The notes: generated by a model from the letters alone, not told the origin. A stretch of DNA of 15,631 bases from Roseibacillus sp. (GCA_965242925.1 CBDEUM010000008.1:1-15631), one strand, 5' to 3'; numbered from the stretch's first letter, positions 41 through 15,631 are shown. Numbers and translations are program-made.

Positions 41-1570
41 CTATTCCTCGCTCTCCATGCGGGCCACCCGCTCAAAGGGCCTGACCCGATAAATTTTCCG
101 GCCCCGCTGGACCGCGATGGAAGTCTGCTGAACCGCCGCGGAGGCGACCAGGCGGGCGTAAAAGTCGATGGGATGCTCCACCCTGACGTTGTTGACTTCC
201 AGGATCAGGTCGCCCGGGCGCAAACCCCGTTGGGCCGCCTGACTGCGCGCGGAGACTGCGGTGATGAGGACTCCACTGCCCCCCCGCGTCCGCTGGAGGA
301 GGGTCAATTCCTGCACCTTTATACCGATGTCCTGGATGATCCGCTCATCGGTAGCACTGCGCGTGCCCGGTTCGCGCCGCCTGGTCAGGGACTCCGAGTC
401 TTCCGCGTCAATCACGGTGGCGGTGAGGTTCACCTCTTCCCCGGACCGCCACACCTCGATCGTCACTTCCCGATCGACGGGAGTCCGTTGAATCTCACTG
501 AAGAAGTGAACGCGGTTTGCCACCGGTTTTCCGTTGTAGCTGACCACCACGTCATCGGCCTGCAACCCGGCCTTCTGGGCCGGGGAGTCGGGCACCACAT
601 CCACGATATAGACTCCCCCGGTTTCGTCCCATCCTACCTTTTCCCGGATGAGGGGATTCCAATCGTAGCAGCGCACGCCGAGCCATCCTCGGGTGGCCCT
701 CCCCTTCGCCAGGATCTGTTCGAAAACCTCCCGCACGTCGTTGGCCGGGATAGAAAACCCGATCCCCACAAAGCCACGATCCTCGGTATCCGGGGAGTAA
801 ATCGCGGCATTGATCCCGATGATCTCTCCATAAATATTTATCAGAGGGCCGCCTGAGTTCCCTGGATTGATCGCCGCATCGGTCTGGAAAAGGTCCCGCT
901 GGCGATCCGAGATGGTCCTTTCCTTGGCGGAGATGATCCCGCGGGTCACGGTCTCTCCAAGACCAAAGGGGTTCCCGATGGCGAGAGCCTGTTGTCCCTG
1001 CCGCACGCGCCCCGAATCCCCGAATTTGAGAGGCTTGAAATCGCGATCCGCCTTGATCCTGATGACCGCGATGTCAAGGGCCCGGTCTTCTCCGATCACG
1101 GTCGCGGGATAGGTTTTGCCATCGTGCATGGTAACGCTGATTTTCGACTTCCCGTTTGTGACGTGTTCGTTGGTCACCACGTGGCCCTCTTCGGAGACGA
1201 TCACCCCGGACCCGATCCCGCGCACAGGGTAGCCCTCGTCGACCCAAACCCGCCCGAACCAGTCCTGCATGAGCTGGCGCTTAATGCCCTCGGTGTGCAA
1301 CGATACCACGGACGGCACCACCGCTTCAGTCAGTCTGGCGAATTCCCCGTCCAGGGCGGAAAGAAACTCAACCTCCCCGGGGGAGAGCGCCGGCTTGTTG
1401 CTCAGGGTGTAGCTTTCCGGAATGAAATTTTCCTGCCGGTCTCTCTCCCAGAATTTGAAGATGTCGAAGAATCCCTCACCCCCCTGCACTTTCCGAAAGA
1501 CAAAGACGGCGAGAAACGCAAAGACAAATACCCCCCCCAGAACAGCAAAGCGGCGCATTCCATCGTTCAT
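41..1570 (-). CDS. HtrA/DegP/DegQ-family serine protease (trypsin-like domain + 2 PDZ), N-terminal membrane anchor
   Basis: Catalytic triad motifs TNEHV (His), LDIAV (Asp) and AAINPGNSGGPL (Ser). Also GSGVIVS and AIGNPFGLGETVTRGIISA. Two PDZ-like segments (SPAQKAGLQADDVV, SQAAQRGLRPGDLILEVN). Hydrophobic N-terminus FAVLGGVFVFAFLAVFVF. Confidence 0.95.
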   Translation of the reverse strand: MNDGMRRFAVLGGVFVFAFLAVFVFRKVQGGEGFFDIFKFWERDRQENFIPESYTLSNKPALSPGEVEFLSALDGEFARLTEAVVPSVVSLHTEGIKRQLMQDWFGRVWVDEGYPVRGIGSGVIVSEEGHVVTNEHVTNGKSKISVTMHDGKTYPATVIGEDRALDIAVIRIKADRDFKPLKFGDSGRVRQGQQALAIGNPFGLGETVTRGIISAKERTISDRQRDLFQTDAAINPGNSGGPLINIYGEIIGINAAIYSPDTEDRGFVGIGFSIPANDVREVFEQILAKGRATRGWLGVRCYDWNPLIREKVGWDETGGVYIVDVVPDSPAQKAGLQADDVVVSYNGKPVANRVHFFSEIQRTPVDREVTIEVWRSGEEVNLTATVIDAEDSESLTRRREPGTRSATDERIIQDIGIKVQELTLLQRTRGGSGVLITAVSARSQAAQRGLRPGDLILEVNNVRVEHPIDFYARLVASAAVQQTSIAVQRGRKIYRVRPFERVARMESEE

Positions 1571-1620
1571 AGGGCGCTAAGGGGAACGGTGCCAAGGATG
1601 CCTCCATCCCGGCCAAGGTT

Positions 1621-1647
1621 AAAGCGGAATCTCTTCCCGCTTTTGTT
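1621..1647. terminator. Possible hairpin/weak intrinsic terminator between nnr and the htrA-family gene
   Basis: AAAGCGG-aatctcttc-CCGCTTT inverted repeat (1621-1643) just downstream of the nnr stop. The T-tract on the minus strand is short. Confidence 0.3.
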
Positions 1648-1657
1648 CAACCGTATT

Positions 1658-3145
1658 CTAGCAGCCCCGGCTGAGCGCCCGAAACGCTTCTCCCAGCGAA
1701 CGGGCGGTGTCTCCCGCCGTCAGGGACCGCTCCGACTGGCCGGCCTCCAGGGCCAACTCCGCCGCACGGCCAGCCAGCCAGGCGGCAGCGCGCGCCGCGT
1801 CCGTGAGCTGGAGCCCTCCCGCGACCAGCGCCCCCAGCAATCCGCTCAGGACGTCGCCCTGTCCTCCGGTGGCCATCCCGGGATGACCCGTGCTGTTGTA
1901 GTGAAGTTCCTCTCCCCTCGAGGTCACAATGGTTCGTGCTCCCTTGTAGAGCAAGGTGCAGGGGCAGGTCGCCACGAATTGTCGCGCCCTTTCCGCCCGG
2001 CTCAATTCGCCCCCCTCCGGGAAAAGTCTCTGCATCTCGCCCGGATGGGGAGTGAGCACCATCTGGCGGTGCACCCTGCCCGCCACCCCTGCCGTCGCAA
2101 GAAGGTTAAGCGCGTCGGCATCAACCACGAGCGGAATGTCGTTGCGGCCAAGAAGATCCAGGAGGGCCCTCTCCTCCCTGCCCCCCGGACGACCCAGGCC
2201 GGGCCCGACCACCAGCACATCCTGTCCGTCATCCCCAACCTCGGCATAACTGCCCACCGGCCTGATCATCGCTTCCGGTGGCGGCCCCGCGGAAATCAGG
2301 AGCGGATAGTCCTGCTCCATGACGTAAACGGTCACGAGGCCGGCGCCCCCGCGCAGCGCTCCGAGGGCCGCGAGTCCCGCGGCCCCGAGCATTCCCCGCG
2401 ACCCCGCCACGATTCCGACCCGGCCGGCCTGCCCTTTGTGGATCTCAAAGTCCCGGGGCGGAAGGAGGGGGCGGAGATTCCGTGCAGTGGTCAAGTGGTC
2501 TCCCCCGGCTGGAACGGGTAGTTCCTCCAGGGCAATGACCTCGATCCGGCCCACGTGATTGAGAGCGCCGTCAGCCACCAGCCCTCTCTTAGGTATTGCG
2601 ATAGTAGCAGTAAGGTCCGCCCGGACCGCTCCCTCGCCAGGCTCCCCGGTGTCTCCATTGAGCCCGGACGGAATGTCCACCGCCACCACCCGCGCACCCG
2701 CCCGTGCGCGCAGGTCGTTCATCTCGACCGCGAGGGGACGCAGGGGATCGCGCAAGGGGCCACTCGCCCCGATTCCGAGCAGCCCGTCAATCAGCAGGAG
2801 AGGCCCCGGATGGTCCATCGGCTCAAAGGCATCCTGTTGCAAATCCACCTCGCCCAGTTCCCGCAGCTTGCGGGAGGGGAGGAGGCCGAGCTCCAGTGGT
2901 TGAAAGGGACAGCGTAGCGCAATATCCCACCCCGCCGACCGCAATACCTGCAGGGCAACCAGAGCATCGCCCCCGTTATTCCCTCTCCCCAGATAAGCCA
3001 CCGCCGTCCCGGGTTCCGGGTAGAGTGCCCTCAGAACCTCCCCCAGTCGCCGTCCGGCCTTGTCCATGAGAGCCTCCGCCGAAGCCCCGGCCTGGAAGAC
3101 CTTTTCCTCCAGCTCGCGCATTTCCTGACAATCGATCAGGCCCAT
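1658..3145 (-). CDS. nnr: Bifunctional NAD(P)H-hydrate repair enzyme (epimerase NnrE + ADP-dependent dehydratase NnrD; YjeF family)
   Basis: YjeF_N motifs GRGNNGGDALV, IDGLLGIG and VDIPSG. Carbohydrate-kinase motifs HKGQAGRV, GPGLG, VVDADALN, LTPHPGE and GMATGGQGDVLSG. Start moved to ATG 3145 (MGLIDCQEMRELE) because the longer ORF start overlaps the amidase gene. Confidence 0.95.
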   Translation of the reverse strand: MGLIDCQEMRELEEKVFQAGASAEALMDKAGRRLGEVLRALYPEPGTAVAYLGRGNNGGDALVALQVLRSAGWDIALRCPFQPLELGLLPSRKLRELGEVDLQQDAFEPMDHPGPLLLIDGLLGIGASGPLRDPLRPLAVEMNDLRARAGARVVAVDIPSGLNGDTGEPGEGAVRADLTATIAIPKRGLVADGALNHVGRIEVIALEELPVPAGGDHLTTARNLRPLLPPRDFEIHKGQAGRVGIVAGSRGMLGAAGLAALGALRGGAGLVTVYVMEQDYPLLISAGPPPEAMIRPVGSYAEVGDDGQDVLVVGPGLGRPGGREERALLDLLGRNDIPLVVDADALNLLATAGVAGRVHRQMVLTPHPGEMQRLFPEGGELSRAERARQFVATCPCTLLYKGARTIVTSRGEELHYNSTGHPGMATGGQGDVLSGLLGALVAGGLQLTDAARAAAWLAGRAAELALEAGQSERSLTAGDTARSLGEAFRALSRGC

Positions 3146-3151
3146 GAGCAC

Positions 3152-3157
3152 ATCATA
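3152..3157 (-). promoter_or_regulatory. Candidate -10 element (TATGAT) 6 nt upstream of the nnr ATG; possible leaderless transcript
   Basis: Minus strand reads ggt-TATGAT-gtgctc-ATG, with no Shine-Dalgarno at the usual spacing. Confidence 0.4.
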
Positions 3158-3206
3158 ACCCCGGCGAACTCCATCGCACTCCTCATTTTCCGGCTTCTTT
3201 GCGGCT

Positions 3207-3824
3207 CTAGGGTGAGCGCCGGTAATTAGCAATCCCCTCGGCAATTCCGCGAGCCACCGCATCGCGGTAGTCCCCCTTCTTCATGCGAGACCGCTCCCGG
3301 GTGTTACTGACAAATCCGCATTCCACCAGGACGGCAGGGTTCCGGGAGGCCCGCAGGACATGATAGCGTCCGAACTTCACTCCCCGATTGGACGCCTTCA
3401 CTCGCCGCAGCATGCCCTGTTGAACGGCTTCCGCCAAAGGCTTGCTCTCTGCGCGATAGTAAAAGGTCTCCAGTCCGGAAACAGAGCGCCTCCAACTGTG
3501 GTTGTAGTGCAGGCTCACGAAGACCGAACTGCGATAGCGATTTCCGATCGCAGCCCGCCGGGGAAGCGAAATGAAGGTGTCGCTCTTGCGGGTCATGGTC
3601 ACCTGGTAGCCGCTCGCCTGCAGATAACGCTCAAGTCGAAGGGCGGTATCGAGCGCCAGGTGCTTCTCGTAGACCTTCCCTGTCCAGCCGCCGCGGTCAT
3701 GTCCTCCGTGGCCCGGATCGATCACAACGCGGCTAAAGTCGCCGGCGGAGGCGCCAGACGAACCGAACGCGCTCACAAGAGCGGTAATAACAACTCCCCG
3801 GAGGAGAGAACGGAGGGAAAACAT
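3207..3824 (-). CDS. N-acetylmuramoyl-L-alanine amidase (Amidase_3/AmiC-type catalytic domain only) with signal peptide
   Basis: Zn-ligand and catalytic motifs VVIDPGHGGHD, EKHLAL, FVSLHYN and VLVECGFVSN. The signal-like N-terminus ends in ASA. Confidence 0.93.
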   Translation of the reverse strand: MFSLRSLLRGVVITALVSAFGSSGASAGDFSRVVIDPGHGGHDRGGWTGKVYEKHLALDTALRLERYLQASGYQVTMTRKSDTFISLPRRAAIGNRYRSSVFVSLHYNHSWRRSVSGLETFYYRAESKPLAEAVQQGMLRRVKASNRGVKFGRYHVLRASRNPAVLVECGFVSNTRERSRMKKGDYRDAVARGIAEGIANYRRSP

Positions 3825-3863
3825 GAGCAGGAAATACCAGTGCAGGCTTATCTTGTTAGAGAT

Positions 3864-3892
3864 CTTTTACCCAAGACGAACTGTCTCCGCAA
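3864..3892 (-). promoter_or_regulatory. Candidate sigma70-type promoter of the amidase gene (TTGCGG-N17-TAAAAG)
   Basis: Minus-strand TTGCGG (3892-3887), a 17-nt spacer, then TAAAAG (3869-3864), about 40 nt before the ATG. Confidence 0.4.
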
Positions 3893-3913
3893 CGCATTTT
3901 TGGAGGCTGCGCC

Positions 3914-3965
3914 GAAAGTCGTTCCCCCCGGAAAGTCGTCCCCCCAGGATCCCCCCTCCATCCCC
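3914..3965. repeat. Tandem direct repeat GAAAGTCGT(T)CCCCCC x2 within four C-tracts (G-tracts on the minus strand)
   Basis: gaaagtcgttcccccc (3914-3929) and gaaagtcgtcccccc (3931-3945), followed by C6 at 3951-3956 and C4 at 3962-3965. Confidence 0.75.
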
Positions 3966-3966
3966 A

Positions 3967-4851
3967 TTAACGATAGGTCATCCGGGGGCGCTCCGATAGC
4001 TTTCGAAGCCGTGCCCTGCTCTGCGCCGCCGCCTGGGGATCGTAGGAGATCCCACCCGAAACAACGACCTCTCCATTGGTGAAGGTCGCCAGGGCCGGCT
4101 TCCTGCCCGGGGCGGGATTATAATACTTCGTCCCGAGGTACTTCCCCGCGGGCGTGACCGTGCCATGGGCGTAGATATTGGGCGCGGACAGGAAGAGAAC
4201 GTGCAGGTTGCTGCCTCGGTCTACGGTGGCCTTCGGCGTCTTGCTGTTAATGACGTCACCCATGCGGAAGGCCTGCATAGTGCGACCCGTGCGGATGTCG
4301 ATGAGGTGAACGTAGAGCGAAGATTTGCGTGAGGTATTATGAATGGAGAGACGATACTCTCGCACATTCCCGCCGGCCGGATCTCCCACACGCTGGCTGT
4401 AAACCTGTCGGCCCCGGGTGACATTGAAGTAGGCCGTGTTGGTAACGAACTGGCCCCCGCCCCCGGGAAGGCGAACCACGGCCTTACAGCGGAATCGTCC
4501 GGGTTCGGTCACGCGGAAAGCCCCCGTAAGATCGACCCTCTTGGTAATGCTGCGGCCCGCTGGAATTGTCACTGCGCCGAAATTCATTGCCGCCAGGGGG
4601 CTGAGGGCAGTGCCGCGTGAGTTCTTGATTTCGAAATCGAGCCAGTTCAGGGTTGTCCGGTCATCCGTGTGAATGAGCAGGTCACGTCCGGCATTATTTG
4701 TCAGAGTCACGGTGGCAACCACCGGCTCGTGGGCAATGTATTCCTTCTCTGACATGCTGAGGCTCGCCTTGATCTGAGCCTCAACGCTTTCGCCAGCTGA
4801 TAACGCCACAAGGGCGAAGGTCAGGAGCCGTATTCTGGAAGTGGGTAGCAT
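3967..4851 (-). CDS. Secreted/periplasmic hypothetical protein, beta-rich with an Ig-like N-terminal domain
   Basis: Signal peptide (RIRLLTFALVALSAGESVEA|Q). Alternating beta-strand pattern EPVVATVTLTNNAGRDL...TIPAGRSITKRVDL...PGRFRCKAVV. Co-directional with its neighbours and does not overlap them. Confidence 0.8.
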   Translation of the reverse strand: MLPTSRIRLLTFALVALSAGESVEAQIKASLSMSEKEYIAHEPVVATVTLTNNAGRDLLIHTDDRTTLNWLDFEIKNSRGTALSPLAAMNFGAVTIPAGRSITKRVDLTGAFRVTEPGRFRCKAVVRLPGGGGQFVTNTAYFNVTRGRQVYSQRVGDPAGGNVREYRLSIHNTSRKSSLYVHLIDIRTGRTMQAFRMGDVINSKTPKATVDRGSNLHVLFLSAPNIYAHGTVTPAGKYLGTKYYNPAPGRKPALATFTNGEVVVSGGISYDPQAAAQSRARLRKLSERPRMTYR

Positions 4852-4876
4852 GTTGGATGTGAATAACTGCGCCTGG

Positions 4877-4906
4877 GGTTTACGCCGTAAAAGGTTCCCC
4901 CCGCAA
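4877..4906 (-). promoter_or_regulatory. Candidate promoter TTGCGG-N18-TAAACC for the 3967-4851 gene
   Basis: Minus-strand TTGCGG (4906-4901) and TAAACC (4882-4877), 25 nt before the ATG. Confidence 0.3.
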
Positions 4907-4965
4907 GGGAAACTCGCCGGGTTTCCGATAATTTGTGCTCCATTCGCAGAATTTCCAGATGAACT

Positions 4966-6486
4966 TCATCTCTCTCCGGGAGCCACCTGCCGGACCAGTC
5001 GAAAGCCCACATCCCTCCGGCGGATTTCCCGCGTGTTCAGCCAGATCCGGGCACGCACCCCTCCACCCGGGGCCAGAAACGTCCCTCCACACGCCAGCGG
5101 ACTCTTGGCATTCATGGGAAAGGCGGGATTGCGTTCAGGGGTTTCTGACCACTCCGCCACGTTTCCCGCCAGACCATGAATCCTGCGGCGAGAGACTTCC
5201 CCGGCCAATTGATCAACCGGACCCCACCCGCCCGCGCTGCTTGCTTCCTCCCTGTCCAGGGTCGCAGCTGCCAGCCACTCCTCCTGAGTGGGCAGCCGCC
5301 CTCCTTTCCAGTTCGCATAGGCATGGGCATCCCACCAGTCAATGCGCGTGACAGGGCAATTGAGATCGAGGTCCAGGCCGTCATGATTCCTGCCGGCCCG
5401 CGCCGCACTCAGGACCGAATGCCAGTCATCCGGAAGGTGATCCAGCTTGATGGCTGGTTGAGTGATGTGATCGTAGGCGCTGCGCATGCTTTCCTCCAGG
5501 CTGGCCAGCGCATTGAGAAACGCCGCATACTCAGCGATCGTAACCTCGTGGGCATCTATCCAGAAGCGGTCCAGTTCAACTTCCTTGCCGGCATGGTTCT
5601 GATAGGTGCCGGCCGGAATCGCAATCATGGCTGAAAGATCGCGGGCCTCCGGCGCACGCGGGCGGGTGAACAGGAAAAACCCGCCCACCCCTGAAACTCC
5701 AAGAATAAGGACCACCAAAAGGATGATGCCACCCGCTCGCATTCGCTCCCGGCGGGAGGCCTTGGCCTGAAGCGCCCGGGAAGCCCCCGCTTCGGAGGCG
5801 AGATCCTGTTCCAGCATCCCTGACGTGTTGGCGACCTGCGCCCAGCTCAACTCGATTCCCTCCTCCAGGCCCATCATCATCCCCAACAGCCTCCCGGTGC
5901 GGGCGGCCCCCGGAAGGTCGGCCTCCAGCACCCCCTGGAAGAGTTCCCCAACCATGACCTGATCCCGGGCTCTCCCCTCAGGATCTGGCTGGCCTGCAGT
6001 CGCAAGATTCGCAATCCGCACGACCTCGTGTTCGCCCAGAACCAGGTGTTCCGGCTCCAGGGGAAGAGTCGCAATCGCCCGCTCCCCAAGATAGGCCATG
6101 GCCCCCCCGACCTGGCGCAGGAATCCCACAATGGTGAGGGGCGTAAACTTCCGGCCCTCCTGAGGAATCTGGGTGAAGGTCGCCCCCGGAAGAAGCTCCC
6201 GCGTCCAATAGACCTCCCCCTCTTCCTGTGCGGCCTCGTAGACTGAGCCAATCCCGGCATGTTCAATGGCCGCCTTGGCCCGCACGTCCGCCAGAAACGT
6301 CTCTCCCGACGGTCGGGTCGGGTCGATCACGCCCTTGAGCCTCACCAGGATCACAGCACGATCGACCGATATCTGCCGGGCGTGATAGGTTCGCGTATTC
6401 TCGTCTTCGGAGACCAACTCCACCAGCAGGTAATCTCCCAGCTGCCGGAGAGCAGGGCGGACTTGATCTTTTTCAGAGCCGGACAT
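4966..6486 (-). CDS. Membrane protein: degenerate Ser/Thr kinase-like (pseudokinase) domain + TM helix + FGE-sulfatase (SUMF1/EgtB/PvdO-like) domain
   Basis: Kinase N-lobe-like sequence LGDYLLVELV..YHARQISVDRAV..FLADVRAKAAIEHAGIGSVYE..ELLPG. TM helix AGGIILLVVLILGVSGVGGFFLF. FGE motifs FWIDAHEVTIAEY, PVTRIDWWDAHAYANWKGGRLPTQEEW, GLAGNVAEW and VGFRLV. The start is either ATG 6486 or TTG 6534. Confidence 0.85.
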   Translation of the reverse strand: MSGSEKDQVRPALRQLGDYLLVELVSEDENTRTYHARQISVDRAVILVRLKGVIDPTRPSGETFLADVRAKAAIEHAGIGSVYEAAQEEGEVYWTRELLPGATFTQIPQEGRKFTPLTIVGFLRQVGGAMAYLGERAIATLPLEPEHLVLGEHEVVRIANLATAGQPDPEGRARDQVMVGELFQGVLEADLPGAARTGRLLGMMMGLEEGIELSWAQVANTSGMLEQDLASEAGASRALQAKASRRERMRAGGIILLVVLILGVSGVGGFFLFTRPRAPEARDLSAMIAIPAGTYQNHAGKEVELDRFWIDAHEVTIAEYAAFLNALASLEESMRSAYDHITQPAIKLDHLPDDWHSVLSAARAGRNHDGLDLDLNCPVTRIDWWDAHAYANWKGGRLPTQEEWLAAATLDREEASSAGGWGPVDQLAGEVSRRRIHGLAGNVAEWSETPERNPAFPMNAKSPLACGGTFLAPGGGVRARIWLNTREIRRRDVGFRLVRQVAPGER

Positions 6487-6583
6487 CACAGCCTGGGACA
6501 ACGCCCGGAATATGCGACTATCCCAACGTCGCAAAGTCGAAAGTCAGGATGAATCCCGCCCTCCCGGGCAACCGCGTCCGGAT

Positions 6584-7966
6584 CTAGAAATGGATGGCAT
6601 GCCCCTCTGCGTCCAGAGAGGCCTCATGCACCCCTTCGGTGAGGGTGGGGTGGGCATGTATGGTGGCGTGAAAGTCCTCGATAGTGGCCTCCAGGGTGAG
6701 GCCAAGGCCCATTTCCGCAATAAGGTCGGTCGCATTCGCTCCGATGATATGAGCGCCCAGCAATTCGCCGTGCTCCTCTCCGAACAGGAGCTTGATGAAC
6801 CCGTCGGTTTCCGCTGTGGCCTGGGCCTTGCCCAGGGCCTGATAGGGGAACTTACCCACCTTGCAGGCCACGCCCTCCTCCTTCAGCTCCCGCTCAGTTT
6901 TTCCAACCGAGGCGATCTCAGGGTAGCAGTAGGTGCAGCCCGGGAAGACGTCGACCCGCTTCGGTTCGGCCCCCTCCACGAAGATCCCTTCCACGCACTG
7001 GGTCGCCTCGAACATCGCCGTGTGTGCAAGCCAGGGCGGCCCGGCAATGTCCCCGACAGCGTAGACCCCGCTCATCGATGTCTGGTAGCGATCTCCAATC
7101 TGGATCCAGCCCCGGTCCGTGAATTCGGGGAGTTGTCCGCCCGGCAGAACCGGCTCCACCCCGATGGCCACCAGACAAACGGCCGCTTCGATGACCTCGC
7201 TGCCCTTCGCATTCTCCACCGTCACGCTCACTGAGTCTCCACGATCCTCCGTGGCAGTCACCCTGGTATCCGTCAGGCACTTGATTCCCTGACGCGAGTA
7301 GGACTTCTTCAGGGAATCCCCGATCTCGTCATCCTCCACCGGAACAAGCCGCGGCATCATTTCCACCAGAGTCACCTTTGTTCCAAACGCACTGTAGATA
7401 TAGGCGAATTCCACGCCGATCGCGCCCGCTCCGATTATAACCATGCTCTCAGGCTGGGTGGGCAGGACCATCGCTTCCCGCGAACTGATGACACTCCTGC
7501 CGTTAGAGGGCAGCTCCGGAAGCTCGCGGGACTTTCCGCCGGTCGCGATGATGATATTGGCTGTTTCTAGTACCTGGGTGCTTCCGTCCTCCGCCTTCAC
7601 CTCCACATGGGCGCTGTCCACAATCGAGCCATGGCCCCGCACATAATCGACCTTGTTCTTCTTGAAAAGAAACTCAACGCCGCCCGAAAGCCTGTCGGAA
7701 ACCTTGCGGGAGCGCCCGATCACCGCCTCCCAGTCGTAGGAGAGGTTGTCAAACGCCATCCCGAACTCCTTGGCCCGGTGTTTAAGGGTGTGAAAAAGAT
7801 GGGCGTTCTTGAGAAGCGCCTTGGTGGGAATGCATCCCCAGTTCAAGCATGTTCCGCCCACCCGTTCCGCCTCCACGCAGGCAACCTTCTTCCCCAACTG
7901 CCCGGCCCGGATGGCGGCCACATAGCCGCCCGGGCCGCCACCAATCACAACGAGATCGTAGGACAT
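6584..7966 (-). CDS. lpdA: Dihydrolipoyl dehydrogenase (E3)
   Basis: FAD-binding GGGPGGY, redox-active disulfide GGTCLNWGCIPTK, NAD-binding GAGAIGVE, and the C-terminal HAHPTLTE His-Glu pair. Confidence 0.97.
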   Translation of the reverse strand: MSYDLVVIGGGPGGYVAAIRAGQLGKKVACVEAERVGGTCLNWGCIPTKALLKNAHLFHTLKHRAKEFGMAFDNLSYDWEAVIGRSRKVSDRLSGGVEFLFKKNKVDYVRGHGSIVDSAHVEVKAEDGSTQVLETANIIIATGGKSRELPELPSNGRSVISSREAMVLPTQPESMVIIGAGAIGVEFAYIYSAFGTKVTLVEMMPRLVPVEDDEIGDSLKKSYSRQGIKCLTDTRVTATEDRGDSVSVTVENAKGSEVIEAAVCLVAIGVEPVLPGGQLPEFTDRGWIQIGDRYQTSMSGVYAVGDIAGPPWLAHTAMFEATQCVEGIFVEGAEPKRVDVFPGCTYCYPEIASVGKTERELKEEGVACKVGKFPYQALGKAQATAETDGFIKLLFGEEHGELLGAHIIGANATDLIAEMGLGLTLEATIEDFHATIHAHPTLTEGVHEASLDAEGHAIHF

Positions 7967-8065: not shown

Positions 8066-10207
8066 TCAGTTGGCCGGGCCCTCGAAGACCTGCAGGAGGA
8101 GGTTGTTTCCATCCAGCGGAACCCGGATTGGTTGGGGCGTGGCATCGTCCAGGTTGAGGTGGGGGATGATGGGCTGGAAGTCGCGGCCATTCTGAGAGGC
8201 CCGCAGATGAAAGGTTCTTCCGACGGGAAGGTCTCCTATCTCAACACTCACCACCTCCGCGGCGCGGTCAATCCCGGAGATGTCGAAAGACAGTCGCGTC
8301 ACAACCGGAGCCGCCACCGTGAAGAACTGGTCGCCTGCAAGATGGTCAAAGTTGACGAAGGCGGGGTCCTGCAGGTTATGGGTCCCCTGGGGCAGTCCCC
8401 CCAGGGCCTGGTTTGAGAGGTAGTCGTGGTTCTGGTTGTTCTGGAGGAGCATCACGCGGATCTCCCCACCCGAATACCCGACATCGCTGAGCGCAAGGCT
8501 CAGTTCCAGCCCGGAGGCTACCGCGCGGGCCGCCCGCTGGTCCGCAGGAGCACCCGCGTTTCCTCCTATCCCGCGGACATTGCTCCCGTTGTAGGCCACC
8601 CCGATGAGGCTCTGGTTGACGGTTCCGAATCCGGTCGTCCCCACCCCTTCATTCAGCAGACTGAAGATGCGGGGGTAGGTATCGAAGGAAGAGGACCCGA
8701 TGATCGAGAAGTCGAGGTCAATCCGATCCCCCCCGCGGCGGAAGATCACGTGCCGCTCTGGCGTGAACGCGCTGTCAAATGTCAACCCGGCAAGGGAATC
8801 ACTCCCGTCATTCCCCGGGGTGGTGGGCATGACCGAGGTCCCGCCGGACGCTGCGTCGATGAAAACCTCCAGCCGGTTTCCGTTGGGCTCGAGGTTCCCG
8901 GTAAACATGAGGTAGAGCCGGTTACCATTGATCAGGCCATAGGCCCCATTCCACTCACTCTGATTGTTCCCGAACCCGGTTTCAACCGTCTGCACCGCGA
9001 GGGGCTGCCCGTAGGCTGCGTCCCGAAGGCCATCGACCACGATGATTCCCAGCAGGGCCGCGTTACTGCCCGTATCCCCGGGGTCCGTTCCGTTTCGAAC
9101 CTCAAAGCCGTCGTTCTCTCCGTCACCATCACTGTCTTCATTCAAAGGATCGGTGACAAAGCCGTCGGCGCCCTCCGCCACTTCTTCTCCGTCACCAAGT
9201 CCATCGCCATCAGTATCCACCCGGGCCGGATCCGTGCCGACCGCGACTTCCGCCTCATCGTCGAGTCCATCGCCATCACTATCCGTCCGGTTGGGATCAC
9301 TGCCCTGTTCGAACTCCTCCTGGTTGTCCAGCCCGTCCCCATCGGGATTGCCCGAGGAATCGTCCGCCCCGACATTCAAATGGTTCACACGTTCCCACTC
9401 GTCACGCATGCCGTCCTGATCGCTGTCCGCCGCGGCAACATGGTTCCCCGTAGTCACGTCGGCGTAGCTCGCACCGAAGCGAATCTCATCAAAGGTCAAA
9501 CCATCCTCGCCAAACCGCGCCATGCTTACGCGGTCAAAGCGGATGTTGAGGCCGCTGAACTCGGCATCCCCTACCCCCGGTTCGCTCAGGGGATCGGGGT
9601 TGCGCCAGACGGCCAGACGATCCCCACCGGGGACGGCCGAGAATTCCAGTTTGCCCACGAAGAGATTCACCGTCGCATCACCGACCCCGAGATCAACCGA
9701 GTCGACGAACCCGCCATCCTTCACCCGGATCACAAAATTGCTGGCGGAAAACGGTCCCGTCCCCTGTTCGCCGGTGGCAATCTGGAGAACCCGGTTCTCA
9801 TTGTCGTCGAAGCCGCCATTGTGAAGCTCAAAGGCCCGGTAGGAGCTGCCGGCCGACTGCAGTTGAACCAGAACGCTGAAATAGACCGTCCGCTCAATGG
9901 AGTCGTCGAACCTGGCCCGAAGGCGCCGTCCAACCCGGCCCCCGCCCGGCCCGTCAAAAAGGAACGCCCCTGCCCCGCTGCTCACGTTGGTGCGGCTCAG
10001 TCCGGTCGGCACCGCCATCGGCGATTCCGCTCCCGGATAGGCCGGGAGCCAGCTGCCCTCGAATCCCTTCAGGGCAGGGCCCGTCCCGGAGATGACAACC
10101 CCGGGGCGATAGGACGACGCGCCCAGGGGCACGAACTCAGCCGCCTCCGGAAGAGCGGAGGCGGACAGGGTAAGAGCCGTAAGAACAAAGGGAAGGGGGC
10201 GCTGCAT
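8066..10207 (-). CDS. Large secreted/cell-surface multidomain protein with thrombospondin type 3-like (DxDGDG) Ca-binding repeats, ~713 aa
   Basis: Signal peptide from ATG 10207 (MQRPLPFVLTALTLSASA). A beta-sandwich-like domain ends at FDEIRFGASYADV, followed by five DxDxDG repeats, a second beta-rich domain and a ~78-aa C-terminal domain. The upstream ORF extension to 10615 overlaps the divergent gene and was discarded. Confidence 0.85.
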   Translation of the reverse strand: MQRPLPFVLTALTLSASALPEAAEFVPLGASSYRPGVVISGTGPALKGFEGSWLPAYPGAESPMAVPTGLSRTNVSSGAGAFLFDGPGGGRVGRRLRARFDDSIERTVYFSVLVQLQSAGSSYRAFELHNGGFDDNENRVLQIATGEQGTGPFSASNFVIRVKDGGFVDSVDLGVGDATVNLFVGKLEFSAVPGGDRLAVWRNPDPLSEPGVGDAEFSGLNIRFDRVSMARFGEDGLTFDEIRFGASYADVTTGNHVAAADSDQDGMRDEWERVNHLNVGADDSSGNPDGDGLDNQEEFEQGSDPNRTDSDGDGLDDEAEVAVGTDPARVDTDGDGLGDGEEVAEGADGFVTDPLNEDSDGDGENDGFEVRNGTDPGDTGSNAALLGIIVVDGLRDAAYGQPLAVQTVETGFGNNQSEWNGAYGLINGNRLYLMFTGNLEPNGNRLEVFIDAASGGTSVMPTTPGNDGSDSLAGLTFDSAFTPERHVIFRRGGDRIDLDFSIIGSSSFDTYPRIFSLLNEGVGTTGFGTVNQSLIGVAYNGSNVRGIGGNAGAPADQRAARAVASGLELSLALSDVGYSGGEIRVMLLQNNQNHDYLSNQALGGLPQGTHNLQDPAFVNFDHLAGDQFFTVAAPVVTRLSFDISGIDRAAEVVSVEIGDLPVGRTFHLRASQNGRDFQPIIPHLNLDDATPQPIRVPLDGNNLLLQVFEGPAN
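9074..9427 (-). repeat. Five intragenic TSP3-like repeats (~22-27 aa): DSDQDG, NPDGDG, DSDGDG, DTDGDG, DSDGDG, four ending in G(S/T)DP or VTDP
   Basis: Directly visible in the translation. Confidence 0.9.
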
Positions 10208-10393
10208 GGCAACGTTTTCGGGGATTGAGACCATCCTCCCCGCTTGATTGAATATTACAATGGCTAGTTGCTTCATGAGAAAAAAGACCTTGAACTCCGC
10301 GCCGCGATCTCCCGTGATCCATGCGATATCCTGCCGCAATCTGTCCCCCTGAAGCTGCCCGCAGAACGGGTGACAATTCCAGACTCCGATACC

Positions 10394-11644
10394 ATGAATC
10401 CCGCCCTCTTTGCCTGTCTCTGTCTCTCCTTGGCGTCCCCTCTTCTCCGGGCTGAGCGCTCGATGGAGGAATGGAGTGACGAGCTCGGGAAGAGGTATAA
10501 TGCCCTCGGGAGTTTCCGTGCAATCTACACCGCGGTATCGCCCACCGCCAAGGAGCCGATGCAGGGCCTCGTTCTCGAGGATCGTGACAGCGGCGCCTGC
10601 CTGGTGAGGATGCACTCCGACGCCACCGGTGGGGTAACGATGTGGTGGCTCCCCGACGGAGCAGGCAATGGCGGCGCCACATTTGCACAGTTCGGCCAGA
10701 ACACCTTCCGGGTCCGGGGATTCGCAGAATTAAAGCGCCGCTACGACGATCTTGCCTTCCTCGGACAAAAGCGCCCCGCCCGTTCTCGCCGCCCGGTCCT
10801 GGTCCCGGTGATTCATCTTGGCGAAGAAACCATTGCCGTCTTCCTCGCCGCCATCCGGGCCAACCAATCTCCCCCGTTCTCCCATATTGCCCCCTCCCGG
10901 GTAGCGGAAGTCCGGGAGTTGGCCGAAACCGTGGAGTTTGTCCTCGACGACGGTAGCTGGCTGCGCCTCCAGCGTGAGACCGGCCTCCTCGCCGGCCAGG
11001 GGTATCCCGATGAAAAGGGAGAACGCAGCTTGCTGCTGGAAGCGGTCCAGCCCCTGGGGGGCATGGCGGAGTTCCGCAAGGAGATTCCAGAAATCGACCC
11101 TGCCAGGATGCAGGAGGCCTCAGCGGAAGAACTTCACTTTGCTAATGTTCTTCATGCCGCTCTTTTTCACATCTTCGTAAACTGGAAGAAGGCAGAGGGC
11201 GACCGGCTCCTCGCTGAAAACCCGGGTTCCCTCCAGGCCTACTGGCAAGCCGCCTGGGGCACCCGCCCACCACCGGGAATTCCCGCCGACCTGATCAAGC
11301 TCCTGCAGGATCTCAAAGGCCAGAAAAAGCAATTCCGTCTCGAGTGGAACGCCGCCAAGAAGGCCCGCCCCGACATCATGAAGGACGTTTCCTTCTTCCA
11401 GTTTTTCCGGCAACGACGGATGGAGTTCCGACGGGACCTTCGCCAGAAAATCGAAATGGAGGCTCAGAAACTTCCCTCCCTTGCCCGCCTGCAGACCCTT
11501 CTCGATGGCGAAATCGCCAACCTCAATCCGGCCCAGCTCACCCGAGGGAGGCGGCTGGCTGCCCTTATGGTGCAAAGCCAGCGTGACGCCATGGTCATCG
11601 CGCTTATGCCTCCGGTATCAGACGAAGACCTCGACAAGCTCTAA
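10394..11644 (+). CDS. Secreted hypothetical protein, ~416 aa (possible LolA-like N-terminal fold + helical C-terminus)
   Basis: ATG 10394 gives the signal peptide MNPALFACLCLSLASPLLRA|E. The long ORF fills the gap between its divergent and convergent neighbours. The fold call is tentative. Confidence 0.75.
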   Translation: MNPALFACLCLSLASPLLRAERSMEEWSDELGKRYNALGSFRAIYTAVSPTAKEPMQGLVLEDRDSGACLVRMHSDATGGVTMWWLPDGAGNGGATFAQFGQNTFRVRGFAELKRRYDDLAFLGQKRPARSRRPVLVPVIHLGEETIAVFLAAIRANQSPPFSHIAPSRVAEVRELAETVEFVLDDGSWLRLQRETGLLAGQGYPDEKGERSLLLEAVQPLGGMAEFRKEIPEIDPARMQEASAEELHFANVLHAALFHIFVNWKKAEGDRLLAENPGSLQAYWQAAWGTRPPPGIPADLIKLLQDLKGQKKQFRLEWNAAKKARPDIMKDVSFFQFFRQRRMEFRRDLRQKIEMEAQKLPSLARLQTLLDGEIANLNPAQLTRGRRLAALMVQSQRDAMVIALMPPVSDEDLDKL

Positions 11645-11650
11645 GCACCT

Positions 11651-11675
11651 GCCCCGGATTCTTCCCCCGGGGTTT
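11651..11675 (+). terminator. Possible hairpin between convergent genes
   Basis: CCCCGG-9nt-CCGGGG followed by TTT, 7 nt after the stop at 11644. Confidence 0.3.
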
Positions 11676-11694
11676 CCGGCAAAGGGCTGGTCCG

Positions 11695-12717
11695 CTACTC
11701 CAGCATGAACTGCAAGTGCCGGGCGGTAAGGTCGCCCATCGTCTCACACGCCTCGAAGGCCTGAGTGCCATACCGCTCCCCAAGAGCAGCACGCAGCTCG
11801 ACTAATTTCTCCAGGGGGGCGATGGTGTCCTTGCGCATCGTTTTGAGGACCCCCTTGAGGCGGACACGGGAGGCTCGGAACCGACGGGCCATCTGGCTCC
11901 GCTCCTCGCTGCGATACTGCAGGATGGTGGTCGGGTTGAGGTGCTGGCGCACCAACTCATCTACCGGTTTGTTGTCCGGGAAGTGGTGGGCCCGATAAAC
12001 TCCGAGGGCTCCCTCGTAACACTGTTGATCGAAGTCAATCGGCCGCACACGGTACTGGACCTCCTCGAAATCCGGGGTGATGTCGACCACGTAGTTTACG
12101 CTGCGCATGTCGCCCAGCAGACGGAGAAAACAGCGCTCCCCGAACTTTACGAATTCCTTCGCAACCCGTACCTTGTTGAGTTCCTCTTCCTCCAGGTAGT
12201 CCTTGATGAAGACATTCCCGGGCACTCCCGCGATGTGCTCCTCAACCAGGGTGTTGCCGTTGACAAGATAATTGATCCGATTGGGCGAAAGGATGTGCTC
12301 CAGTTCCAGCCCGTAGATACGGTTGGCGTCCGCAATCTTGACGTAGTAGTAGTCCGAGTTGCCGTTGAACTGGTTTGTAATCCTCACGCGGAAGGGTCGC
12401 GAGTTGCCGAACTCACCAAAATCGATCCGTTCCACGTTGAGGTGCTCCACAAGCGAAAGGTCCCCTCCGATCTTCAGGACAGCATAGATCTTGGTGAGCT
12501 TGGGCCGCAGGTCTTCCATGACCTCCGGCGGAAAGGAAACGGTGAGCCAGAGCGTTTCTTCCCCGCTTGGATCTTCATAGGGAATGGCCTCCGAAAAACG
12601 CAGGAGATCGTCGTAAACGAGTGGAATCTCGGAGCGCCGTCCGAAGTGCTGCAGGTACTGCAGAAGGAAGCTCGAGACCGGATAGTGCTGCTTGCGCTTC
12701 TGGATGAGGGGCGACAT
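11695..12717 (-). CDS. Hypothetical protein, ~340 aa, with PI3K/HipA-like atypical kinase motifs
   Basis: ATG 12717 (MSPLIQKRK). Motifs FGEFGNSRPF, YYYVK, LLGDMRSVNY and RPIDFDQQ occur in kinase order. CDS status is strong; the function is inferred. Confidence 0.8.
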   Translation of the reverse strand: MSPLIQKRKQHYPVSSFLLQYLQHFGRRSEIPLVYDDLLRFSEAIPYEDPSGEETLWLTVSFPPEVMEDLRPKLTKIYAVLKIGGDLSLVEHLNVERIDFGEFGNSRPFRVRITNQFNGNSDYYYVKIADANRIYGLELEHILSPNRINYLVNGNTLVEEHIAGVPGNVFIKDYLEEEELNKVRVAKEFVKFGERCFLRLLGDMRSVNYVVDITPDFEEVQYRVRPIDFDQQCYEGALGVYRAHHFPDNKPVDELVRQHLNPTTILQYRSEERSQMARRFRASRVRLKGVLKTMRKDTIAPLEKLVELRAALGERYGTQAFEACETMGDLTARHLQFMLE

Positions 12718-12781
12718 TGGATTTCGGATCCGGTTTTCAGATCTGCTTCGCTTACATTCGAAATTGAACCCCCGGGGCTCT

Positions 12782-13246
12782 CTAGCCCGTCTCGAACCTC
12801 GCAATCAAATGCAGGGTATCGATCCCGCATTTGGTGAATTCCTCCCAGTAGCTCTTCTCAATGGAGCTGGTGCGCTCCCGGCGCGCCTTCTCGTCCAGAG
12901 AGTTCCAAGCAGGCAGGCCTATCTTGCGAATCACATCGCGTTCGGCGAGGCGCAGGGTCAGCTCTTCCCAGAAAATCTCGTTGCGCATTTCATCAAGCGA
13001 TTCCTGCACAAAGGACCGGGTCAGGTAATCGGTGGTGACCCGGTAGCGTTGCTGAGCTTCATCAAACTCGACAATATCACCGAATCCGAGGTGAGTGACC
13101 TTCTCGAGAATGGTATTCTCCAACTCTTCAAAACGCCCAAACCGCTCCTTCGCCCCGGATCGTCGGTTCAGGGACGCGACCTCGACTGCGAGACTGATCA
13201 TATCGATCAGCACGCCGAGTTCTTCCTCTGTAAAGCGAAGATGCAT
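12782..13246 (-). CDS. Hypothetical cytoplasmic protein, ~154 aa, Glu-rich and predicted helical
   Basis: ATG 13246 (MHLRFTEEELGVLIDM). Protein-like composition with FWEELTLRLAERD and YWEEFTKCGI segments. Lies 64 bp upstream of the kinase-like gene on the same strand. Confidence 0.75.
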   Translation of the reverse strand: MHLRFTEEELGVLIDMISLAVEVASLNRRSGAKERFGRFEELENTILEKVTHLGFGDIVEFDEAQQRYRVTTDYLTRSFVQESLDEMRNEIFWEELTLRLAERDVIRKIGLPAWNSLDEKARRERTSSIEKSYWEEFTKCGIDTLHLIARFETG

Positions 13247-13353
13247 CAACTTGGCCGCAGCGCGGAAAGAAATCATCCCACCACCCGGTCCGCAAGCCCG
13301 CAACGCCGAATTCCCCTCGACCGGCTGGAAGGCAGCTGATTAGATTCCCGGTG

Positions 13354-13701
13354 ATGAGACTCCTGCTCATCATCCTGACCCTCCTCACCCTTCCCGGTTG
13401 TTTCCTGTTCAAGAAACGCCGCCCGAACCCCTACCCGGTGATCTCCTTTGAAGTGGTCCATGCCCGGGCCGGCGGCCTGCAGCCTCAGGATCATGTCGCC
13501 CTCGCCAAGTGGGATGACGCCTACTATTACTTTGAATGGCGCCGCATTCTGGAACCCGCTACCATGAAGACCAGTGAAGGGGCGGGCCGAGTCGCCGTCA
13601 GGGAATTCGACCAGAAAAACGGCCGGGCGCTGGAGCGCAGGCTCGGCATTATCGGCAAGGAGGACCTCAACGGTCAGCTCTATAACGCCGGTGCTTACTG
13701 A
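13354..13701 (+). CDS. Small putative lipoprotein, 115 aa
   Basis: MRLLLIILTLLTLPG|C: basic N-terminus, hydrophobic core and lipobox LPGC. Alternative GTG start at 13351. Confidence 0.75.
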   Translation: MRLLLIILTLLTLPGCFLFKKRRPNPYPVISFEVVHARAGGLQPQDHVALAKWDDAYYYFEWRRILEPATMKTSEGAGRVAVREFDQKNGRALERRLGIIGKEDLNGQLYNAGAY

Positions 13702-13789: not shown

Positions 13790-14281
13790 TTAACGCTCCC
13801 GCGGACGGATCACATCCTCGAGTTTCCACTTCCCCGGTTGAAGGGCGGCACTCCAGCTCTCCAGATCAAGCGAGAGAAGAGCCGCGTTCGCAGTCTTCAT
13901 CACGATGTCCTCTCCCGCCAGCCAGTCCACCAGATCCTCCCATCCGGGATTGTGCCCCAGCACGAGAAGACACGCCACTTGATCGGGCACGGCAGGCAGT
14001 TCGCCCTGCGCCGCGCCCAGACCGGCGTGATAAAAGGACGGGAGATAACGCGCCTCCACCGCGGAGGGGAAAAACTCGCTCATTCCCGCAAACGTTTCGC
14101 GCGTTCGCTGCGCATCGCTGCTCAGAACAAGTTCGGGCGTCCATCCCCGCTCCACCAGAGCGGCCCCGATCTTTGGCGCGTCCCTGCGGCCCCGGCCGTT
14201 AAGCGGCCGTTCGTGATCCGAGTGGGCCGGGCTGTTCCACGAGCTCTTGGCGTGGCGCATGACGATCAGGCGACGCGTCAT
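13790..14281 (-). CDS. sixA: SixA-family phosphohistidine phosphatase (histidine phosphatase superfamily)
   Basis: LIVMRHAKS, DHERPLNGRG, LSSDAQRTRET and LVLGHNPG; 163 aa. Confidence 0.9.
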   Translation of the reverse strand: MTRRLIVMRHAKSSWNSPAHSDHERPLNGRGRRDAPKIGAALVERGWTPELVLSSDAQRTRETFAGMSEFFPSAVEARYLPSFYHAGLGAAQGELPAVPDQVACLLVLGHNPGWEDLVDWLAGEDIVMKTANAALLSLDLESWSAALQPGKWKLEDVIRPRER

Positions 14282-14283
14282 TG

Positions 14284-15630
14284 TTATTCGGACTGTTCTA
14301 CCTGGTAGAACTCCCGAGCAGGGCTGGGAAGGGGAAGGTTAATCGTGTAGGACGCGCGATTCTTTGACGCCCGCACCAAGGGAAATTCATCCGTAAAGCC
14401 CTGCAGGTCGCTGCTACGTCGCACCTTGTAGAAAAGGCCACGGTGCTGGGTCCAATCGAGCCGGAACTGGGAGTTCGTTAGCTGCGTCACCGTCAACCTT
14501 GGACGTTCCTCCAGGATGCTCCCGTCGAAATACTTGATCCCAAGTTTCCAAACAGCGATCCCACACTCCGACCCCACAATCCGGCCTGGTCCGTCATCGA
14601 CTGGCACATGGATTCCTCCGTAAAGGCGCGAAATGCCCGCCTGATCCGCCGCATCATAATAGGTGGCCCATTGCAGCTCTACGTTCGTGGTTGGTCCGGC
14701 CTCGAACTCCAATTCGCCTGCCGCCACCTCGTGGGATAAAATCCCGCCCGGGAAGAATTCGCTTCCAGTGAGCCGAACAAGGACTTCAGCCGCCGCCCGG
14801 CTGAAGGTGCTGTGCCCTGAGATATACCCCGCGAAGGCGGGGGTCACGAAGGTGTCGCGTTGATAGGGAGCCCACTCTTCCGCCAGGATCCAGTCTACTC
14901 CCCCGATCTGGGTCTCGACATCAGCCGGTTCCCCCTGCCAGGCACGAACCGCAATCCTGCCGATCGCCCCCGGCCCAAGATGGGCATGCCGCTGGCCCGC
15001 CTTGGTTGTGCTGGCAGTCACCACCTCGATCAGGTCCGGCACCAAGGGCAGACCTTCCTCGTTGTAGGAGGAGCCGGCAGGGTCGCTCGACTGCCCGTGA
15101 CCGCCCATGTAGCGAATACTGCTGATCGGTCGCACGTAATCGTACTCGCGCTTGCAGGTCCAGGCCGCCACCGCCGCGTCATGCGCCGAGGCATTGATGA
15201 GGAAATACATCTTCGCGTCCCACTCAAGTTCCTCTATCACCGGACCCGTGCCCAGGAACCGCCGTTCAAAGGACGGGTGGTCAACCACTTTATTGGCAAT
15301 CACGTTCCAGTGCCCGGGAGGGGTTTCCGAGTTCGGGCCGTCCGCCCAGTGCTCCGCTATTACCCGTCCAAAATCCGCCTCGTTCACCAGATTTGGAGCG
15401 TAGGCCACGCCCGTGACCGGGTTGATTGCGTAGCCTGTCCCGTCGTTCGTTCCCAAGGGATTGTTGCCGATGGTGCCCGGTGAATAATCCTTCTGCGGAG
15501 CCTGGCCTGGATCGAGCAGGCTGCTGTAACGGATCACTTCTGCATTCCCCGCCTTGTATTCCTCGTCGCCATCGCCTTCCAGCTGCGGGGGGCCGCCCGG
15601 GTCGAAATAGAGCATCACGGCAGGCTCGCG
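14284..15630 (-). CDS. Vanadium-dependent haloperoxidase / PAP2-superfamily protein (5'-truncated by the window edge) with a C-terminal beta domain
   Basis: All three vanadate/phosphate-binding motifs are present: K-x6-RP (KREYDYVRP), YISGHSTFS and SR-x5-H-x3-D (SRLYGGIHVPVD). WADGP..ETPPGHW is also present. The frame stays open to the window end. Confidence 0.88.
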   Translation of the reverse strand, partial: REPAVMLYFDPGGPPQLEGDGDEEYKAGNAEVIRYSSLLDPGQAPQKDYSPGTIGNNPLGTNDGTGYAINPVTGVAYAPNLVNEADFGRVIAEHWADGPNSETPPGHWNVIANKVVDHPSFERRFLGTGPVIEELEWDAKMYFLINASAHDAAVAAWTCKREYDYVRPISSIRYMGGHGQSSDPAGSSYNEEGLPLVPDLIEVVTASTTKAGQRHAHLGPGAIGRIAVRAWQGEPADVETQIGGVDWILAEEWAPYQRDTFVTPAFAGYISGHSTFSRAAAEVLVRLTGSEFFPGGILSHEVAAGELEFEAGPTTNVELQWATYYDAADQAGISRLYGGIHVPVDDGPGRIVGSECGIAVWKLGIKYFDGSILEERPRLTVTQLTNSQFRLDWTQHRGLFYKVRRSSDLQGFTDEFPLVRASKNRASYTINLPLPSPAREFYQVEQSE

Positions 15631-15631
15631 A

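Follow-up and report, generated by a model that had tools for sequence, protein, structure and literature searches.

The 15,631-nt stretch of Roseibacillus sp. DNA analysed here (GCA_965242925.1 CBDEUM010000008.1:1-15631; the window) carries, on its minus strand at positions 11695–12717, a gene for a 340-residue PI3K/PI4K-fold kinase-like protein, which residue numbering and homologues strongly indicate to be a member of the SEAE1 family. The open reading frame (ORF) starts with an ATG at 12717–12715 and ends with a TAG at 11697–11695. An alternative in-frame TTG further upstream would give a product of 369 residues; in the alignment, the starts of homologues coincide with the region of the chosen Met. 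The protein is predicted to be soluble, with an isoelectric point of 6.06, a top 19-residue hydropathy of 0.95 and no signal or transmembrane segment. A promoter and terminator scan of 11400–13500 found none. From the structural model and from sequence conservation, we consider it quite probable that the protein is catalytically competent, acts in the cytoplasm as an ATP-dependent phosphotransferase and has a protein-kinase-like (PKL) fold of PI3K/PI4K/PIKK type.

Conserved motifs of the protein

Residue conservation was read from an alignment of 98 sequences, made up of 18 diverse database proteins (down to 26% identity) and 80 genome loci. The family behind this alignment is large, with at least 7,997 matching clusters at 90% identity (8,000 were scored); the best 120 of these are 67–91% identical to the protein and carry no precomputed Pfam domain. 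Among the representatives of clusters at 50% identity, 549 match at E ≤ 0.001. Species-representative genomes contain 579 loci of the kinase, 80 of which were kept for comparison. Identity between Verrucomicrobiota and Bacteroidota is 50–56%, and conservation is very high along the full length.

An earlier note on this DNA had listed six kinase motifs, and all six are present in the order it stated, from residues 98–110 through 227–230. The first is the nucleotide-loop equivalent, IDFGEFGNSRPFR (residues 98–110; 12388–12426, minus strand, as for all parts of the protein given below), which lies between strands 93–101 and 109–115 of the structural model. The note had called it a Gly-containing loop; the loop is there, but its glycines are variable, G101 being Cys in 68/98 sequences and G104 being Ala in 9/98. 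Judged from the alignment, the conserved core of the loop is N-x-x-P-F-R, not GxGxxG, with P108 identical in 98/98 and N105, F109 and R110 in 97/98.

The second motif, YYYVK, ends in K127 (12337–12339), which closes strand 121–128, the β3 equivalent, and is the putative Lys that binds the ATP phosphates. It is followed by D130 (97/98) and by an αC-equivalent helix (residues 131–143; 12289–12327) that carries R133 (97/98) as well as E138 and E140 of the third motif, YGLELE (135–140). Strand 156–160 and the hinge form the segment TLVEEHIAG (residues 156–164; 12226–12252), in which E159 and G164 are identical in 98/98 sequences and H161 in 97/98.

The catalytic loop, LLGDMRSVN (residues 200–208; 12094–12120), contains D203 as the proposed base, R205 at position +2 and N208 as a proposed Mg ligand. 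G202, D203, M204 and N208 are invariant, and position 205 is Arg in 90/98 sequences and His in 8/98. The pattern LLGDM[RH]xxN occurs in 81/81 ORFs, bearing out the variant D-M-R-x-x-N loop that the note had described. IDFD (residues 227–230; 12028–12039) provides D228, the DFG-type putative Mg-binding Asp, together with F229 and D230, all three of them in 98/98 sequences. The pattern xDFD is likewise found in 81/81 ORFs, as I/VDFD in 80 and MDFD in one, and N208 is separated from D228 by 20 residues, in line with the spacing of about 20 residues first noticed. K127, D203, N208 and D228, whose conservation the note had proposed to check, are thus each identical in all 98 sequences. From the sequences compared, the occurrence of the motifs is far beyond chance.

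Directly after the DFD lies the activation-loop equivalent, QQxYEG....Y (residues 231–246; 11980–12027), which is short and strongly conserved, with E235 in 98/98 sequences and Q231, Q232 and Y241 in 97/98. The stretch from 228 to 262 is acidic overall, containing three Lys and Arg and six Asp and Glu residues.

Predicted fold and family membership

An AlphaFold2 model built from an 18-row alignment has a mean predicted local distance difference test score of 91.1 and a predicted template modelling score of 0.89, and it is bilobal and kinase-like. In the model, K127 closes the third strand of a sheet formed by residues 93–101, 109–115 and 121–128; helix 131–143 comes next, followed by two strands and the hinge (150–166). 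The D203...N208 loop comes after helix 182–198, the DFD comes after a β-hairpin (209–226), and six helices finish the C-lobe. The motif residues are therefore positioned, in the predicted structure, as a protein-kinase-like fold requires.

Structural searches place the model closest to the PI3K class. Foldseek against the PDB returned 191 matches at E ≤ 0.001, headed by PI3Kdelta, Bud32 and Rio2 with a probability of 1.00 and template modelling scores of 0.29–0.44. A VIA-align search of 48,161 representative chains gave Tel1 (Z 13.8; 278 residues, root-mean-square deviation 4.3 Å) and ATM (Z 13.7; 272 residues, 4.6 Å), with Vps34 at Z 12.9, SMG1 at 12.7, PI4KIIIbeta at 12.3 and PI4KIIalpha at 10.6. 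CotH (10.0), actin-fragmin kinase (9.4), CtkA (9.0) and MavQ (8.8) score lower, as do HipA (8.2 and 7.5), Bud32 (8.2), the APH, Rio and choline kinases (about 7.5) and Fam20 (7.2). In a second ranking, in which the best 981 chains from Foldseek were re-aligned and the top 50 listed, all 50 are PI3K/PI4K/PIKK kinase domains, including mTOR (Z 13.7), Vps34 (13.6) and PI4KIIIbeta (13.4). Overall, such domains (Vps34, PI4KIIIbeta, p110, mTOR, ATM and SMG1) align at Z 12–14 over 250–280 residues, within the range 15–340. The confident bilobal model and these best matches answer the check for a kinase fold that the note had proposed. Because the PI3K-type matches outrank CotH, CtkA, MavQ, HipA and Fam20, the protein is PI3K/PI4K-like rather than HipA-like, so that of the label "PI3K/HipA-like" the first half stands and the second, with HipA at Z 7.5–8.2, does not. 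The fold is silent on the class of substrate, since lipid-kinase and protein-kinase members of the PI3K type are tied in Z.

The regions flanking the motifs can be read in the same way. The N-terminal extension (residues 1–92; 12442–12717) consists, in the model, of two helices, a β-hairpin and a long helix, and Y21, L22, Y35, W57 and L81 are conserved in it. Alignments to PI3K-type kinases start at model residues 15–30 and those to eukaryotic-type protein kinases (ePK), APH and Rio at about 62–69, these being ranges and not residue maps. The extra N-terminal domain of about 100 residues noticed earlier is therefore extra relative to ePK, APH and Rio, but it lies within the span over which PI3K-type kinases align. 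The C-terminal helical sub-domain (residues 247–340; 11698–11979) comprises the six helices of the C-lobe, and residues up to 336–340 fall in the range aligned to PI3K/PI4K/PIKK C-lobes.

The SEAE1 family was defined from Segetibacter aerophilus WP_147203046.1 (Krysinska et al., 24 Sep 2026, bioRxiv 10.64898/2026.09.18.752743). It is described as having 7,867 homologues (Bacteroidota 39.1%, Verrucomicrobiota 8.7%), PI3K-type structural neighbours and an HHpred E-value of 250 to PF00454. In the reported AlphaFold 3 model of the founder with ATP, the phosphates are held by K140 (α-phosphate) and R146 (β-phosphate), D216 acts as the base, N221 and D241 are the Mg2+ ligands, and D243 is the pairing partner of R146; the active-site residues are clustered and the orientation of ATP is normal. 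K127, R133, D203, N208, D228 and D230 of the Roseibacillus protein correspond to founder residues K140, R146, D216, N221, D241 and D243 minus 13 in every case. With regard to the Glu that the earlier note had placed after the Lys, E138 (94/98) and E140 (96/98) are well kept, but the ion pair of the founder model is the equivalent of R133–D230.

Homologues from Chitinophagaceae, the family of the founder, connect the two proteins further. They are 51–57% identical to the Roseibacillus protein, and in the longest ORF of five of them the catalytic Asp is residue 216 and the DFD Asp residue 241. Genes for a periplasmic binding protein and a class II fructose-bisphosphate aldolase flank one Chitinophagaceae locus and fit the description of SEAE1 homologues outside Segetibacter in the preprint. 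No Segetibacter occurs among the best 120 matches of a Chitinophagaceae query or among the 80 kept loci, and it is through the residue numbering and these homologues, rather than a direct alignment to the founder, that membership is strongly indicated. As in SEAE1, the range covers Bacteroidota and Verrucomicrobiota, the protein is intracellular, the size is similar (7,867 homologues versus at least 7,997 clusters here), and PI3K-type structural neighbours go together with the lack of a significant PF00454 match. The Roseibacillus protein differs from the founder in being a Verrucomicrobiota member, in its shorter N-terminus and in having no PAP2/SmpB/AccD cluster. The word "cryptic" in the earlier note no longer applies, the family having been named in the 2026 preprint. 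Within the literature library searched, the name SEAE1 occurs in no other paper, and a second search found no earlier description of the family. The family is thus not new; new here is a Verrucomicrobiota member of a computationally described family.

Several points weigh against reading the protein as an active kinase. The geometry of the active site is deduced from motif order, secondary structure and the SEAE1 preprint. The structural matches have root-mean-square deviations of 3.8–4.8 Å and identities of 8–13%. Searches of Pfam, NCBIfam, PADLOC and PDB sequences and profiles assign no kinase family to the protein, and a Pfam scan of 18 family members assigns none either. In particular, PF00454 (PI3_PI4_kinase) gives no match at E ≤ 1 in the protein or any of the 18 members, and the eukaryotic-type kinase family Pkinase (PF00069) has no Pfam match in the protein. 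The Pfam matches obtained are at chance level (Ubie_methyltran, E 0.13; in one member, the PI3Ka accessory domain, E 0.089), as are those to PDB sequences and profiles (E ≥ 0.2). Furthermore, when the family is compared by hhalign with four HipA_2 proteins, the probability is an insignificant 2.8% over 32 columns, which cover the nucleotide loop and the Lys strand. Phosphotransferase activity is proposed for the whole family from the model and the sequences, and PKL folds are also capable of AMPylation or glutamylation, as in SelO and SidJ, respectively.

A kinase fold used for such other chemistry, or as a non-catalytic scaffold, is nevertheless very unlikely here. It is the theme of the SrfA-N example in the same preprint (bioRxiv 10.64898/2026.09.18.752743), but the canonical Lys, the catalytic Asp, the Asn and the DFG-type Asp do not vary among the aligned sequences and keep their usual order and distances, the pattern of phosphotransferases and not of known pseudokinases, and the founder is reported to bind ATP in the normal orientation in its model.

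Distribution, gene neighbourhood and acceptor

The kinase gene is single-copy in the Roseibacillus genome (4.58 Mb, 89.9% complete). It is present in 39/201 sampled Verrucomicrobiota genomes, including every genome of two families (17/17 and 15/15) and none of 16 in one genus of Roseibacillus's own family, and in 50/251 sampled Bacteroidota genomes, one of which has two copies. On a FastTree tree of 81 sequences, made by a quick method with no outgroup, one branch with support 99 parts Verrucomicrobiota (41 rows) from Bacteroidota (38 rows), and the window kinase groups with two Roseibacillus metagenome-assembled genomes at 88% identity. This single-branch split fits vertical descent within each phylum, and horizontal transfer between the two phyla is unsupported.

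Neighbouring genes are not shared across the family. After two clusters of shadow ORFs overlapping the kinase gene had been set aside, no neighbour cluster occurs in more than 7/81 loci, and each such cluster is limited to loci grouped on the tree. Among 115 immediate neighbours picked, three were dropped (off the locus end or the window's own); the 112 representatives analysed are miscellaneous housekeeping genes with no PAP2. The window's own neighbour genes are kept in at most 3/80 other loci. Fusions are rare and uninformative, amounting to two longer proteins, one of them a putative fusion of 686 residues with HATPase_c (P0273), plus one putative fusion with an N-terminal TFIIB-type zinc ribbon (P0124; E 1.5e-10). 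The gene thus behaves as a stand-alone, vertically inherited, single-copy gene of housekeeping type.

Next to the kinase gene, a 173-residue ORF (12782–13303, minus strand) lies 64 nt upstream on the same strand and has no match in Pfam, NCBIfam or PADLOC; since it is present in only 3/80 related loci (L001, L002 and L006), it is not a family-wide partner. A convergent 458-residue ORF (10268–11644, plus strand) has no family match and occurs in one related locus only (L001). Further upstream, a VCPO_2nd/PAP2-clan gene (14284–15631, minus strand; E 3.6e-11, with a sub-cutoff PAP2 match at E 0.0055) continues past the end of the window and is directly followed by a 163-residue histidine-phosphatase gene (His_Phos_1; 13790–14281, minus strand). 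This pair shares the strand of the kinase gene, lies about 1.6 kb upstream of it and is kept only in two Roseibacillus loci.

Some other genes noticed in the window are on the minus strand. An 849-residue protein (8066–10615) has bacterial thrombospondin type 3 repeats (TSP3_bac, E 7e-17) and is probably a secreted calcium-binding surface protein. A housekeeping run (41–7966) encodes an HtrA-type protease with PDZ domains, a bifunctional NAD(P)HX epimerase/dehydratase, an Amidase_3 cell-wall amidase and a pyridine-nucleotide-disulphide oxidoreductase. A 522-residue protein (4966–6534) combines a C-terminal FGE-sulfatase domain (E 8.2e-23) with a sub-threshold N-terminal Pkinase match (E 0.0018), and it may be a Ser/Thr-kinase–FGE fusion.

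The neighbourhood bears on whether the protein could be a HipA-type toxin kinase of a toxin–antitoxin or defence module. Four HipA_2 proteins share G-x-x-x-P-F ... Y-W-V-K, which resembles GNSxPFR ... YVK of the kinase family. Besides this resemblance and the HipA structures among the matches, the ESM Atlas gives HipA_2 (PF20613) clusters as the nearest named ones (score 0.90, 136 shared features), which is below the family-marking level and a lead only. No HipA_C or HipA_2 Pfam match exists in the 18 members, however, and a PF20613 search of the Roseibacillus genome found none; the hhalign probability given above is low, PADLOC is empty, and the PI3K-type matches lie 4–6 Z units higher. Nor is there a conserved neighbour or a HipB-type antitoxin, the upstream 173-residue ORF being in 3/80 other loci, and the single-copy gene follows the phylum phylogeny. 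Taken together, the Pfam, hhalign, PADLOC, neighbourhood and Z evidence makes a HipA-type toxin hardly credible, the only rival that is effectively excluded.

For the acceptor, the preprint suggests an inositol lipid for SEAE1, which would make the protein a kinase of phosphatidylinositol or another inositol lipid and a bacterial counterpart of PI3K and PI4K. The closest folds do include the lipid kinases Vps34, PI4KIIIbeta, PI4KIIalpha and MavQ, a PAP2 phosphatase is reported near the founder gene, and the PAP2-clan gene of the window lies about 1.6 kb upstream. PIKK protein kinases score equally high in Z, however, PAP2 is missing from the 112 immediate neighbours, the PAP2-clan gene is confined to the two Roseibacillus loci, and the stretch after the DFD is acidic, not basic.

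Co-occurrence with inositol synthesis adds to this picture. Myo-inositol-1-phosphate synthase (MIPS), searched as PF01658 and detected in control genomes as expected, is present in 9/201 Verrucomicrobiota genomes (6/39 with the kinase, 3/162 without) and in 48/251 Bacteroidota genomes (14/50 with the kinase, 34/201 without; genome completeness not reported). MIPS is thus somewhat commoner in kinase-positive genomes in both phyla, a mild enrichment that is real in the counts of genomes that are, being related, not independent. This enrichment cannot make an inositol lipid the general substrate: 69/89 kinase-positive genomes have no detectable MIPS, the Roseibacillus genome (89.9% complete) among them, and in one Verrucomicrobiota family the kinase is found in 17/17 genomes and MIPS in 0/17. 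Inositol import could supply hosts without MIPS. Because most hosts lack the synthase, the inositol-lipid-kinase idea is unlikely to hold in general; the co-occurrence found here does not support the suggestion of the preprint and argues against phosphatidylinositol as the acceptor in most hosts. We regard an inositol-lipid kinase as distinctly unlikely.

It is possible, if doubtful, that the protein is instead a protein kinase that modifies Ser/Thr (or Tyr) residues of a conserved protein in the cytoplasm, much as PIKKs, CtkA, CotH, actin-fragmin kinase or HipA modify their targets. Tel1/ATM, mTOR and SMG1 are among the top structural matches (Z 12.7–13.8), with CotH, actin-fragmin kinase, CtkA, HipA and Bud32 at Z 8–10, and conservation over the full length (50–56% between phyla) would fit a conserved protein partner. 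No linked partner gene is apparent, however, neighbour clusters being tree-restricted and in at most 7/81 loci; the two longer forms are uninformative; and the short, nearly invariant activation-loop equivalent appears to differ from the regulatory loops that most protein kinases have. Because loop 231–246 is short, nearly invariant, polar and non-basic, we lean weakly, and with somewhat less than even confidence, to a defined polar small molecule or a non-inositol lipid head group as the acceptor in preference to a protein. It counts against our overall reading that this preference, drawn from loop conservation and charge, is a weak one.

Proposed mechanism and known kinases

In the mechanism that we propose for an active SEAE1 phosphotransferase, ATP would be seated between the two lobes, the acceptor would bind the short loop after the DFD (231–246), and R205 (His in some members, like PI3K "DRH") would stabilise the transferred phosphate. 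The counterpart of this +2 residue would be the His of "DRH" in PI3K or the Lys of "HRDLK" in ePK. For the other residues the roles are taken from the SEAE1 preprint. Specifically, K127, together with R133, would hold the ATP phosphates, N208 and D228 would bind two Mg2+ ions, and D203 would deprotonate the substrate hydroxyl. A salt bridge between R133 and D230, as in the founder model, would take the place of the usual Lys–Glu pair.

A kinase that is 50–56% identical across two phyla, single-copy and strongly constrained most probably has an important role. Knowing what it phosphorylates would extend the described biology of environmental Bacteroidota and Verrucomicrobiota by a pathway and would be relevant to how this kinase class arose. 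The practical result is an annotation as a SEAE1-family PI3K-like kinase, together with a negative result on the inositol-lipid idea. A broader proposal, which we consider unlikely though not far-fetched, is that SEAE1 is a bacterial branch, both ancient and minimal, of the PI3K/PI4K/PIKK catalytic domain, phosphorylating a non-inositol acceptor (a conserved metabolite, lipid or protein of the two phyla). If true, it would show the role of the fold before its use in phosphoinositide signalling and the DNA-damage response of eukaryotes, and it would amount to a new pathway of phosphorylation in bacteria.

Among known systems, kinases of the Pkinase (PF00069) type differ in two respects: the SEAE1 preprint reports no Lys–Glu pair for its model, and the loop glycines are variable here. 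The HipA and HipA_2 families (PF07804 and PF20613) belong, like the Roseibacillus protein, to the broad branch of the PKL fold that resembles PI3K, but the catalytic loop of the four HipA_2 proteins fetched differs from LLGDMRSVN. CotH, CtkA, MavQ and actin-fragmin kinase likewise consist of one small PKL kinase domain and fall into this structural branch; they are secreted, spore-coat or effector proteins, whereas the Roseibacillus protein is cytoplasmic and chromosomal, and their Z scores are lower than those of the PI3K type.

Compared with the eukaryotic PI3K/PI4K/PIKK domains, the protein has only 340 residues and is without helical or FAT, C2 and Ras-binding domains; it is acidic, not basic, after the DFD, and it is bacterial, mostly from genomes without inositol synthesis. 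In other respects they are alike: these domains are the best structural match, the DFD is DFG-like, the C-lobe is helical, the catalytic Asp and Asn are five residues apart, and Arg or His stands at +2. In PI3K and PI4K, the catalytic loop GDRHxxN (DRHxxN) is followed by DFG. GDM[R/H]xxN and DFD keep the same spacing, with Met for Arg at +1 and Asp for Gly. Among bacterial families, SEAE1 comes closest in structure to the catalytic core of the eukaryotic PI3K/PI4K/PIKK kinases.

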